From NCBI GenBank assembly GCA_964516975.1, contig CAZFAS010000001.1:118500-182499 (forward strand): a DNA stretch of 64,000 nt. Direction: 5' to 3'. Origin of the DNA: an uncultured Candidatus Saccharibacteria bacterium (GTDB taxonomy: Bacteria; Patescibacteriota; Minisyncoccia; Phycocordibacterales; Zambryskibacteraceae). This document shows positions 6,481-9,310 of the stretch, in pieces. Each line of letters opens with the position of its first letter. The first letter of the stretch is position 1. Below the pieces are notes generated by a model. It was not told where the DNA came from and ran no database searches. It saw nothing but the letters and a program-made list of their open reading frames with translations. Made by a program: the position numbers and the translations under genes.

Positions 6481-7010
6481 AAAAGAAAACCCCGCACGCA
6501 AGCGTGCGGGGGTATGTGACAACTTGACTATAGTCCAATGGACATTCACTTGATCGTCACACACAGTTTCAGTACGAAGCAATCGTGTAATCGTCTTTCG
6601 ACAGTATGGGGATCGCTTCGCACCAAGATATGAGACATTGAGGTCTGCGTCTACACAAACAGAGAATCGTCTCATATCAAAAGAGCAGTTCGGGGGAAAA
6701 CATGAGCTGAAACGCTTTTACAAAGCACGAGAGCTCCCGTTCCAGTGACAAATACTACCTCGTAAATCAACATCTCGAATATCGTCACTTCCCCCTTTCT
6801 AAGTTACAGATATATAACCTAGAAAGGAGGCCCGACAAGCAAAGCTTGTCGGGCTTTGCAGAAAACATCAGTATTCTCGTTGTAAAACATTTTGACAATC
6901 GTCTTCTGCCAAAGCAAAATATCATTCTTTATATATAAGTCAACCCCCATACAAGCAAGCTTGTATGGGGGCGTGTGACAATGATTCGGTCGTCGTAGAG
7001 ACATCAAGTC
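6481..7010. repeat. structured direct-repeat unit A (3' of recombinase gene); similarity decays to ~7250
   Basis: ~80% identical to 8575-9190 with indels; contains three perfect hairpins (6489-6510, 6830-6854, 6944-6971) and terminator-like end on minus strand. Confidence 0.7.
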
Positions 7011-7250
7011 CATCGTCACAAAATGAACTATGTTGTAAGACATGACGAAAGCCGTCAGACACGACAAGCATCAATTCGTCTCACAACATACAAAAGAACT
7101 TGACCTGAGAACATTCATACCGTCTTCACTTAGGAAATGAACTCGATCGTTCTCAGATCAATGAAATGTTGTTTTGAGACATTGGGTGAATCGTCACTAA
7201 GACAAACAGCCTATCGTCTCAAAACAAAGAACTTTAAAGTACTACTCGTT

Positions 7251-8441
7251 TTACACGACACTCCCTGCTTCGATCTTGCTCCACTCCTTGTAGAGCCACT
7301 CAGCAAACTTCGTCGCAGTCCTCCAGATCGCCATCTTGTGGATGTGACCCTTGGAGTATCGCTTCTTTCCATCTACCACTACTGGCTCAGGGTGACGGAC
7401 TGTGATCTGCGCCTTGATCTCTTTGAAACGAATACCCCATGGAGAATCAGGATTCTTGATGAACTGATCCATCAGAAGATACAAGCCCTGACGCACTTCT
7501 GCATTCCAGTTTGCGACCTGACCTCGCGAACGACGAGCAAGGCCGAAATTTCCATCCTTTCCCTTGCGAAGCCCGACGCCACAATACGACTTGAACTTGC
7601 TCTTATTCGGAAAGCGACGGACATCACCGATACCTGAGATGATTCGAGCTGCAATCTTGGGACCACAACCCTTCACCTCGGCAAGCACCTGAGTCCAGAT
7701 TGGAAAAAGGTCAAGTGTCTGTTCGACTGCCTTTGCGCAGCGAGCTTCTTCAGCAATGAGTGACTTCAAGGTAACATCATTTGCTTCCGCATCCTTGAGC
7801 CAAAGCTCAAGCGAACCCGCTTCGTACCAACCTTCACTGCTACAAAATATCTCGCCGATCACTCGTTGCTTCAGTCTCTGCTGACAGGCAATGCGTGCCT
7901 TACGAGCATCGACAAGACTGCGATACTTCCACTGAATCGAGATCAGATCTCGATCAGCAGGAGTCGTCTCAATGAAGTATTCAGGATTAGTAGCAAACAG
8001 ATCAATGAGTAGTCCCGCATCTTCATCCTTACTCCGCTCTTCTCGAGCAGACTTCAGATAAAATGCTGGAATACGCAAAACCTTTGCTCCAATCGATTGA
8101 CCGCGAAGCGAGAGCGCGTATGCGAAGTAATCCCCACTTCCACCAAGAGTCAAAAGCACTCGGTCTCCTGACCGCAAACCATCATACTCGGATGGAATCT
8201 TCCAACCGTTCTTTCCTTCACTGCGATGACTGATTTGAACATCAGAGGGAATACCCTCTTCATTTTCTACAGTCATCCACTTCACAGGAAATCTTCCGAC
8301 AAGAAAATCGTATTCATGAGACTCACTTTCAAGCTCATACACAGTTCGCTCTCCACCATGATCGATTACGATCTGTGTCGGCCTTGCTTCTCCATCTATA
8401 GTCTTCTTGACTCGATGACGAATTCCGATGAGGCGTCCCAC
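7251..8441 (-). CDS. IS110-family-like recombinase/transposase (Transposase_20-type C-terminal domain)
   Basis: C-terminal ...GCGPKIAARIISGIGDVRRFPNKSKFKSYCGVGLRKGKDGNFGLARRSRGQ matches IS110 HhH/Ser domain; GTG start preceded by AAGGAGAG SD; N-terminal domain atypical (IGIRH instead of IGID). Confidence 0.65.
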   Translation of the reverse strand: MGRLIGIRHRVKKTIDGEARPTQIVIDHGGERTVYELESESHEYDFLVGRFPVKWMTVENEEGIPSDVQISHRSEGKNGWKIPSEYDGLRSGDRVLLTLGGSGDYFAYALSLRGQSIGAKVLRIPAFYLKSAREERSKDEDAGLLIDLFATNPEYFIETTPADRDLISIQWKYRSLVDARKARIACQQRLKQRVIGEIFCSSEGWYEAGSLELWLKDAEANDVTLKSLIAEEARCAKAVEQTLDLFPIWTQVLAEVKGCGPKIAARIISGIGDVRRFPNKSKFKSYCGVGLRKGKDGNFGLARRSRGQVANWNAEVRQGLYLLMDQFIKNPDSPWGIRFKEIKAQITVRHPEPVVVDGKKRYSKGHIHKMAIWRTATKFAEWLYKEWSKIEAGSVV

Positions 8442-8574
8442 GTTACTCTCCTTGTAGAGGTTTCGTCCTGAAGGACATGGAAAGAACTGTCAGACAATCG
8501 TATACTCGTATGTAACATACATCAACGAGATAGTCTGACCAAATAAAAATACATACTATATTGAATTTGTCAAT

Positions 8575-9190
8575 AGAAAACCCCGCACGCAAGCGTGCGG
8601 GGGTGTGTGACAAGCGACACCTCGTTGTGAAAGACATCTGCATATTCGTCACACACAATCTAATGTGAAGCAAATCCCACTACGTCACACTACCACAAAA
8701 GACAATACCTCTTTCGCTTCACACTATAACACTAGATATTTTGTCACACAGAATTTTAGTACGAAGCAACTCCTCTTTCGTCTTACGACATATGACCTGC
8801 CGCTTCGCACTAAGATATGAGACACGGTTCTTGTCGAATCGTAAGACGCATTCTTCCAGTCGTCTCATATTAAAAGAACAGTTCGGGGGGGACAATAGCC
8901 TCCTTGTGCAAATAACGCACATCGACGTTTTCGTCCCAGTGACAACGCGTATCTCGTAATATTACATTTCGAACTTCGTCACTTTCCCCTTTCTAAATTA
9001 CATATATAACCTAGAAAGGAGGCCCGACAAGCAAAGCTTGTCGGGCTTTGCAGAAAACATCAATACTATCGTTCAGAACAAACCAATCATCGTTCTCTGC
9101 CAAAGCAAAATATCAATCTTTATATATAAGTCAACCCCCATACAAGCAAGCTTGTATGGGGGTATGTGACATTGATTCGATCGTACACAG
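8575..9190. repeat. structured direct-repeat unit B (5' of recombinase gene); carries ~100-nt insertion relative to A
   Basis: hairpins at 8581-8602, 9022-9046, 9135-9162 identical to those in unit A; minus-strand terminator-like end at 8575-8602. Confidence 0.7.
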
Positions 9191-9310
9191 GTACATTCAA
9201 ACTCTAGTCACATATTGGAAAACATTTCTGAGTTCGTTATAAACAAACGTTGCATCGTCTTCCAATGAAAACAATAAAACACATGTAAATAAGGTAAGCA
9301 AGTAGTGCCC

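Follow-up and report, generated by a model that had tools for sequence, protein, structure and literature searches.

The sequence analysed here, called the window in what follows, is a stretch of 64 kb from a Patescibacteria bacterium (contig CAZFAS010000001.1, positions 118,500 to 182,499, assembly GCA_964516975.1), and all coordinates refer to its own numbering. Near one end of it, a minus-strand gene for a 396-aa protein lies between two arrays of short stem-loop units which are read on the same strand. This region is very probably a chromosomal TIGR-Tas locus of a Patescibacteria (candidate phyla radiation, CPR) bacterium, in which the gene of a catalytically dead TasR is flanked by two stem-loop TIGR arrays. 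This assignment is directly supported by the family and fold of the protein, its catalytic substitutions, the anatomy of the units, their restriction to one locus and one strand, the recurrence of the arrangement among relatives and the promoter- and terminator-like signals. The main elements of the locus are the following.

7251..8441, minus strand: tasR, gene of a 396-aa TIGR-associated protein, from a GTG start at 8441 to 7251
8446..8453, minus strand: Shine-Dalgarno sequence AAGGAGAG, 4 nt 5' of the GTG, seen directly in the sequence
8490..8538, minus strand: unit B10, tigRNA-like, in the 5' leader of tasR (strict-scan hit at 8533; fold of 8485-8540, z -2.4)
8546..8573, minus strand: promoter-like TTGACA-16-TATTTT, directly 3' of the upstream array terminator (consensus scan, 10/12 matches)
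8581..8602, minus strand: rho-independent terminator of the upstream array, CCCCGCACGCTTGCGTGCGGGG then TTTTCT
8603..9266, minus strand: upstream stem-loop TIGR array, 9 units (annotation and strict scan; fold z -2.7 to -3.5)
6512..7227, minus strand: downstream stem-loop TIGR array, 10 units (annotation and strict scan; fold z -5.4 to -6.6)
6490..6511, minus strand: rho-independent terminator of the downstream array, hairpin identical to the upstream one, then TTTTCTTTTT

An earlier reading of the window, made from its letters alone (the sequence-only reading), had delimited the same 396-aa gene from 8441 to 7251, and its Shine-Dalgarno sequence is found at 8453 to 8446. The GTG start is backed by a conserved N-terminus, residues R3, G6, H9, R10 and K12 being invariant among the 73 homologues which make up the family alignment. 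The Joint Genome Institute (JGI) call of the gene begins at an internal methionine and, with 363 aa, is a truncated form.

The protein matches the NCBIfam model NF052498, named "TIGR-Tas system RNA-guided endonuclease", with 136.4 bits for a cut-off of 100 (residues 171-387), while the IS110 models remain under their cut-offs (NF033542, 47.2 bits versus 140, E 1.6e-12; NF051857, 20.3 bits versus 180). Its sole Pfam match is to PF02371 (Transposase_20, E 2.6e-8, residues 251-299), the significant hit which the sequence-only reading had anticipated for the C-terminal region. This domain is a Nop-like RNA-binding domain common to the window protein and to IS110 recombinases. The same reading had described the N-terminus as atypical (IGIRH), and indeed PF01548 (DEDD_Tnp_IS110) is not matched by the window protein in the Pfam search. 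It is matched weakly by 36 of the 73 family members (best E 5.4e-7). According to Faure et al. (Science 2025, PMC12045711), no specific relationship links the RuvC domain of TasR to the DEDD domain of IS110; judging from these profile matches, the relationship may be closer in the CPR clade than stated. PADLOC returned no match.

Among solved structures, a phmmer search of the Protein Data Bank retrieved 9MTY, the TasR of the TIGR-Tas system (Faure et al., 2025), with an E of 1.1e-15, compared to 0.07 for IS621, and a profile of the 73 family members gave 4.9e-26 and 3e-5, respectively. An AlphaFold2 (AF2) model built from the family alignment (mean predicted local distance difference test score, pLDDT, of 94.3) has a mixed alpha/beta domain at its N-terminus and a C-terminal domain made of helices; in the place expected for the coiled coil are two long helices, 161-199 and 210-243, so that a coiled-coil hairpin is predicted at ~161-243. 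With this model as query, Foldseek ranked two chains of 9MTY first (E 1.4e-13, 394 aligned columns, equivalent to the whole protein), ahead of IS621 and ISCro4 at 6e-9 and weaker, and then of TasH structures. The predicted domain order is thus RuvC-like at the N-terminus, coiled-coil hairpin, and Nop-like at the C-terminus, and the N-terminal RuvC-like domain covered by this full-length alignment identifies the protein as a TasR, not a TasA or a TasH. Relatives of 500-580 aa, such as P0136, carry two large insertions in the Nop-like domain, one of ~85 aa which follows the GDxRRF motif and one of ~40 aa which precedes the GHIHKMA motif. Both are absent from the more compact window protein, whose units nevertheless have the same geometry.

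In TaTasR, the enzyme of structure 9MTY, the first RuvC aspartate is D11 and its mutation (D11A) abolishes targeting activity. The corresponding position is R8 in the window protein; it is an arginine in 64 of the 73 family members and never an aspartate or a glutamate. The second catalytic position was assigned to residue 98 on the basis of the order of the predicted strands and of the alignment of the family, without structural superposition. It is a threonine here and V, T, A or I across the family, and the whole segment 95-103, in the strand preceding the invariant LGGSGD motif, is devoid of acidic residues in every member. CsTasR has R8, an exact match, and V126 at its first two catalytic positions; it shows no DNA cleavage in vitro but represses transcription (Xu et al., 2026, bioRxiv 10.64898/2026.09.09.750476). 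By analogy with such assayed relatives, the R8/T98 pair predicts a nuclease-dead state for the window TasR.

The RNA side of the locus consists of 20 units of ~46-66 nt with one geometry, 9 upstream of tasR, 10 downstream and 1 in its leader. In the orientation of the gene, the order of elements within each unit is terminal stem, CGA, 9-nt spacer, UG, inner hairpin, CGA, 9-nt spacer, UG and closing stem, the stem of the inner hairpin being 2-5 bp long in regular units. All 34 of the 10-nt spacer windows tabulated from regular units end in a U before the G, hence the pattern CGA-N9-UG. Unit A1 is an example, with the sequence UUGUUUUGAGAC GA uaggcuguu UG UCuuaguGAC GA uucacccaa UG UCUCAAAACAA. 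The leader unit B10 reads TCAGAC UA ucucguuga UG UAUGuuaCAUAC GA guauacgau UG UCUGA, its first box C being UA rather than GA. The individual units of the two arrays, with the hairpins and promoter-like sites that divide them, are listed below.

9266-9214, minus strand: unit B1
9214-9163, minus strand: unit B2
9107..9163, minus strand: GC hairpin (9163-9135) followed by promoter-like TTGACT-16-TATTTT (9134-9107), splitting the upstream array after B2; putative function
9100-9050, minus strand: unit B3
9022..9046, minus strand: terminator-like GC hairpin GCCCGACAAGC-TTT-GCTTGTCGGGC after B3, then an A/U-rich hairpin
8983-8938, minus strand: unit B4
8937-8889, minus strand: unit B5
8870-8815, minus strand: unit B6, irregular second half
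8813-8756, minus strand: unit B7
8726-8661, minus strand: unit B8, inside the ~130-nt insertion of the upstream block
8656-8603, minus strand: unit B9
7227-7169, minus strand: unit A1
7161-7100, minus strand: unit A2
7090-7029, minus strand: unit A3
7020-6974, minus strand: unit A4 (= B2)
6916..6971, minus strand: paralogous GC hairpin (6971-6943) followed by a promoter-like site (6943-6916), splitting the downstream array after A4
6909-6858, minus strand: unit A5 (= B3)
6830..6854, minus strand: paralogous terminator-like GC hairpin after A5
6789-6744, minus strand: unit A6 (= B4)
6743-6695, minus strand: unit A7 (= B5), degenerate
6678-6627, minus strand: unit A8 (= B6)
6626-6569, minus strand: unit A9 (= B7)
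6564-6512, minus strand: unit A10 (= B9)

Several features of these blocks had been recognized by the sequence-only reading. The minus-strand terminators are present, both blocks ending in CCCCGCACGC-TT-GCGTGCGGGG followed by a T-run, and the conserved stem with a variable loop which it singled out, GATATGAGAC...GTCTCATATC, corresponds to unit A8 and its paralogue B6. Its view that the gene is accompanied by cognate structured RNAs holds as well, since the flanking blocks very probably encode such RNAs, whose variable loops would act like guides; the idea of a domesticated recombinase with cognate RNAs was therefore close in spirit, although not in the IS110-type identity of the protein. Its two repeat blocks are real but the extents require correction: the units run over 9266-8603, 8538-8490 and 7227-6512, and the stretch 7010-7250, described as one of weaker similarity, is in fact occupied by three extra units and the start of a fourth which has an upstream partner. 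Similarly, an insertion of ~100 nt had been noticed in the upstream block; the insertion exists, with a size of ~130 nt (8614-8742).

The reality of the units was assessed in several ways. The minus strand of the window contains 41 copies of the half-site ACGA-N10-GT, 24 of them within 6557-9258, while ~12 are expected in the whole 64 kb. A strict scan combining box, spacing and pairing criteria retrieved 16 units; every one is on the minus strand at 6556-9257, and the rest of the window gave no hit on either strand. With RNAfold, eight units adopt the expected structure with z-scores of -2.4 to -6.6. In addition, a box-anchored test, in which units are anchored on the two box motifs alone and pairing is not required, and which is less subject to selection bias than a covariance model, showed that terminal stems extend by 6.5 further pairs in the window and by 5.2 on average in 80 related loci, compared to 0.5-0.63 in the slid control. 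No Rfam family matches the units, whether the region is searched at E <= 1 or the whole window at gathering thresholds; in particular, neither the bridge RNA that the sequence-only reading had considered nor HEARO, ROOL, GOLLD or similar RNAs were retrieved.

The arrangement recurs widely. Relatives of the window protein form 930 clusters at E <= 1e-3 and 284 at E <= 1e-30, and the named ones are almost all from Patescibacteria. The 80 loci surveyed come from 80 different species-level genomes, each on its own contig and assembly. In these, the strict scan detected 464 units in the orientation of the gene, 2 in the opposite orientation and none inside the gene; units usually occur on both sides of the gene, which is flanked on its own strand in 66 of the 80 loci. 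These units have a median length of 55 nt, a commonest inner-segment length of 12 nt and spacer columns without composition bias. The closest relative outside this population (58% identity, L009/L015) is organized as array and terminator, promoter, gene, array and terminator, with two arrays that are again paralogous to each other. Relatives with as little as 37-58% protein identity keep the array-gene-array layout. Being the norm of the family, this layout does not correspond to an insertion sequence (IS) landed in a tandem structured-RNA array, another possibility which the sequence-only reading had raised.

TIGR arrays have been described on both sides of the gene and ending in terminators, and for the CPR clade a loop hairpin between the spacers, 10-nt spacers with 9 nt pairing and arrays on both sides of the gene have been reported (Xu et al., 2026). 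The tigRNAs of PateTasR are ~54 nt long, and those of CsTasR have 10-nt spacers and a 5-bp inner stem (Xu et al., 2026). The locus resembles most closely the CPR dead-TasR systems, such as that of CsTasR from Candidatus Staskawiczbacteria. Like the window locus, these have a Patescibacteria host, the domain order RuvC-like, coiled coil, Nop-like, an arginine at catalytic position 8 and a non-acidic second position, and units in which a terminal stem, palindromic but variable in sequence, encloses two ~10-nt spacer windows, of which 9 nt pair, with a small hairpin separating them. The window protein differs by its length (396 aa versus 547 aa) and by the insertion between two RuvC strands, which is ~55 residues here versus ~80. 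Of the solved structures, that of TaTasR matches the window protein best in both sequence and fold, and its system shares the tandem-spacer logic, the CCA/UG boxes resembling the C-x-A/UG pair found here. However, TaTasR is only ~20% identical to the window protein, has an active RuvC domain (D11) which cuts DNA, and is served by regular dual-repeat arrays giving 36-nt tigRNAs without terminal stems. The sequence-only reading had also entertained a novel arrangement. Stem-loop TIGR arrays with a dead TasR were in fact described in 2025 (PMC12045711) and 2026 (bioRxiv 10.64898/2026.09.09.750476), and NF052498 already exists, so that the locus is an unannotated new case of a published type of system, real and not novel.

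A mechanism can be proposed for this system. Expression, processing, dimer formation, DNA binding and repression are all suggested by the literature on CsTasR and PateTasR. The arrays and the tasR mRNA would be transcribed on the minus strand, from sigma-70-like promoters to hairpin terminators, the mRNA including the leader unit, with units A1-A4 located immediately 3' of the stop codon. Host RNases would probably cut the transcripts into single stem-loop tigRNAs of ~46-66 nt. Besides its terminal stem and small inner hairpin, each of these would contain two 9-nt spacers, with a box-C-like CGA on the 5' side of each spacer and a box-D-like UG on the 3' side. One tigRNA would then be bound by the two Nop-like domains of a TasR dimer, joined by its coiled coil, and each spacer would pair with a different strand of an 18-bp DNA site. 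As neither of the first two RuvC catalytic positions is acidic (R8, T98), the complex is expected to bind DNA without cutting it and to act as an RNA-guided repressor or as a roadblock for transcription.

Several observations weigh against this assignment or restrict it. Box C is CGA here, not CUU; the CUU motif reported at the stem base of stem-loop tigRNAs is only weakly enriched in this subclade, where each position from 0 to 6 nt 3' of the terminal stems has CTT in 4-8% of cases. The locus fits the CPR clade of stem-array systems with a dead TasR, and its placement in the same subclade as CsTasR is tentative. The equivalence of residue 98 with V126 of CsTasR is proposed from strand order and alignment and is unsuperposed. 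The RuvC-like domain keeps acidic residues, E43, D93, D104 and D141, which are invariant or nearly so; the predicted loss of nuclease activity consequently rests on two positions and on the assayed relatives. Finally, a search with 19 units, in both 18-bp arrangements (the reverse complement of spacer A followed by B, and B followed by the reverse complement of A), on both strands of the window and with up to 5 mismatches, revealed no 18-bp target in the 64 kb: the best site had 4 mismatches and shuffled spacers did equally well or better. In viral and metagenome collections, an estimated ~1-10 chance matches per 18-mer would be obtained, a problem of short spacers which has also been raised for related systems (Xu et al., 2026).

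Four other explanations were considered. The first is an RNA-guided system for RNA modification or binding, similar to box C/D ribonucleoproteins, whose spacers would pair with rRNA, tRNA or mRNA and whose dead RuvC domain would recruit a partner enzyme, as Nop5 does with fibrillarin. The unit topology (box, guide, box', loop, box, guide, box') is that of archaeal C/D small RNAs (sRNAs), and the particles these form with Nop5, fibrillarin and L7Ae share with the window locus a Nop domain, two guides between box pairs and, as predicted for the window protein, a coiled-coil dimer and an inactive N-terminal domain. It has moreover been speculated that the CPR clade is an intermediate towards C/D small nucleolar ribonucleoproteins (Faure et al., 2025), and no DNA target was found in the window. 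Rfam detects no rRNA there. However, in the window as in the 464 family units, the boxes are CGA and UG, not the kink-turn-forming RUGAUGA and CUGA. DNA binding and transcriptional repression have been reported for the relatives CsTasR and PateTasR, and TaTasR is inactive on RNA substrates. Furthermore, spacers are not common to different species beyond chance (1 exact and 68 one-mismatch pairs, versus 1-6 and 44-69 in shuffles), which argues against conserved RNA targets and hence against a housekeeping role of the box C/D type. This explanation is very unlikely.

Very unlikely, too, is an active TasR nuclease which would cut DNA, in defence or in competition between mobile elements, its catalysis being rescued by the remaining acidic residues. 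The conservation of E43, D93, D104 and D141 and the word "endonuclease" in the name of the NCBIfam model speak for it. Against it stand R8, in place of the aspartate whose D11A mutation inactivates TaTasR, the segment 95-103 without acidic residue, and the lack of cleavage in vitro by CsTasR, which has R8 as well.

The third explanation is that of an IS110-family insertion sequence, whose recombinase would transpose with the help of flanking bridge or seek RNAs; it is the identity which the sequence-only reading had given to the protein. The Transposase_20 match, the detection of NF033542, the weak PF01548 matches in half of the family and the position of IS621 and ISCro4 as next-best structural matches speak for it. 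IS621 (8WT6) has a homologous Nop-like domain and a similar three-part fold, and its guide RNA has internal loops with two strands reading opposite DNA strands. Nevertheless, the NF033542 score is only a third of the cut-off, and the first aspartate of the DEDD motif is replaced by arginine across the family. The serine of the IS621 YESG motif, at 243 of the deposited chain 8WT6_A, which we take to be the catalytic serine S241, aligns with D296 of the window protein, in a site where the family consensus is D-G and only 3 of the 73 members have a serine. With R8 and D296, the window protein thus fails both catalytic requirements of an IS110 recombinase. In addition, the gene is present in single copy in the 64 kb and its 80 relatives are distributed over as many assemblies, its layout is kept down to 37-58% protein identity, and it is served by 20 single-loop units with dual spacers, not by one two-loop bridge RNA. 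This explanation, largely refuted already, is extremely unlikely. As for the flanking blocks being generic dispersed repeats of the repetitive extragenic palindromic type, or an unrelated tandem array of noncoding RNAs into which the gene inserted, the two blocks are direct repeats of each other, but this view is refuted and hardly credible, given units confined to this locus within the 64 kb, units which flank the homologous gene and share its orientation in 66 of the 80 distant relatives, and a similarity between upstream and downstream arrays which is also found in 43 of the 80 loci.

Returning to the TIGR-Tas locus, its layout gives some indications on expression. Each array is divided by two GC hairpins, one of them with a promoter-like site on its 3' side, and these elements are located in blocks which are 93-96% identical between the arrays. 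This organization suggests that each array consists of several transcription units, a possibility left open for related systems (Xu et al., 2026). The promoter-like site at 8546..8573 probably drives the leader unit B10 together with tasR. B10 is placed between this site and the Shine-Dalgarno sequence, and A1-A4 come right after the tasR stop codon with no terminator in between; for this reason, the tasR mRNA may also be a tigRNA precursor, which would couple the expression of guides and effector. Small open reading frames (ORFs) of 43-82 aa have been called within the arrays (6451-7067 and 8443-9242). As they overlap tigRNA units and have no Pfam match on record, they are judged spurious.

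Elsewhere in the window, Rfam identifies a group I intron at 60768-61020 on the plus strand (64 bits for a gathering score of 50). A 91-aa ORF at 60553-60828 overlaps its 5' side and contains an HNH-like CxxC...HH...CxxCH pattern. Just 3' of the intron (~61022-61100), the minus-strand translation "...PEVGIEPTT..." suggests a tRNA-like stretch, and the intron may consequently interrupt a tRNA gene left uncalled by ARAGORN.

As a discovery, the locus adds little, TIGR-Tas systems having been published in 2025, the dead-TasR CPR clade having been characterized in structure and function in a 2026 preprint, and an NCBI model being available. Its value lies partly in annotation. In public records, the gene and its relatives carry the names "hypothetical protein" or "transposase", and the product name "endonuclease" of the NCBIfam model is probably wrong for the dead-RuvC clade. 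It also lies in the context, since a compact 396-aa dead TasR is found with 20 cleanly delimited tigRNAs in 64 kb of chromosome; such contexts are scarce, the family being known mostly from short metagenomic contigs.

The relationship between the two arrays is of broader interest. The segments 6556-6993 and 8743-9184 are direct repeats with 77% identity over 452 columns (E 7e-88), not far from the ~80% which the sequence-only reading had attributed to the flanking noncoding blocks, and the terminator segments 6473-6522 and 8564-8613 are 90% identical; no further copy of the array blocks is present within the 64 kb. The paralogy extends across seven units and their linkers (6512-7022 versus 8603-9216). 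Identity between the arrays reaches 94% in linkers, 93% in stems and 92% in boxes, whereas the 9-nt spacers in register are 34% identical, compared to 28% for unrelated spacers, shared ancestry being still visible in 3 of 13 spacer pairs (6-7 of 9 positions). In the seven paralogous stem pairs, read by eye and with no formal count, single-side changes but no paired compensatory substitution were seen. If upheld, this suggests that the duplication or homogenization is recent and that the spacers changed far faster than their surroundings. Across the family, 242 pairs of units within the same locus have near-identical distal stems and unrelated spacers. Eight other contigs encode an identical protein; there the locus is 99.97-100% identical, with at most one mismatch in 3,500 nt, and such near-identical strains give no information on spacer turnover between strains.

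How TIGR systems acquire their spacers is unexplained (Faure et al., 2025; Xu et al., 2026). One tentative answer, which we hold to be possible but not probable, is that the arrays of the window result from a recent segmental duplication and that TIGR arrays grow by duplication of multi-unit blocks, after which only the spacers would change, through their replacement or through a strongly accelerated rate of substitution. Ordinary diversifying selection on spacers after duplication would give the same pattern, which is therefore a clue and not a mechanism. Conserved scaffolds beside near-random spacers nonetheless constitute a concrete and testable clue to spacer turnover and, if growth by block duplication proved true, it would be the first handle on how TIGR systems acquire spacers.

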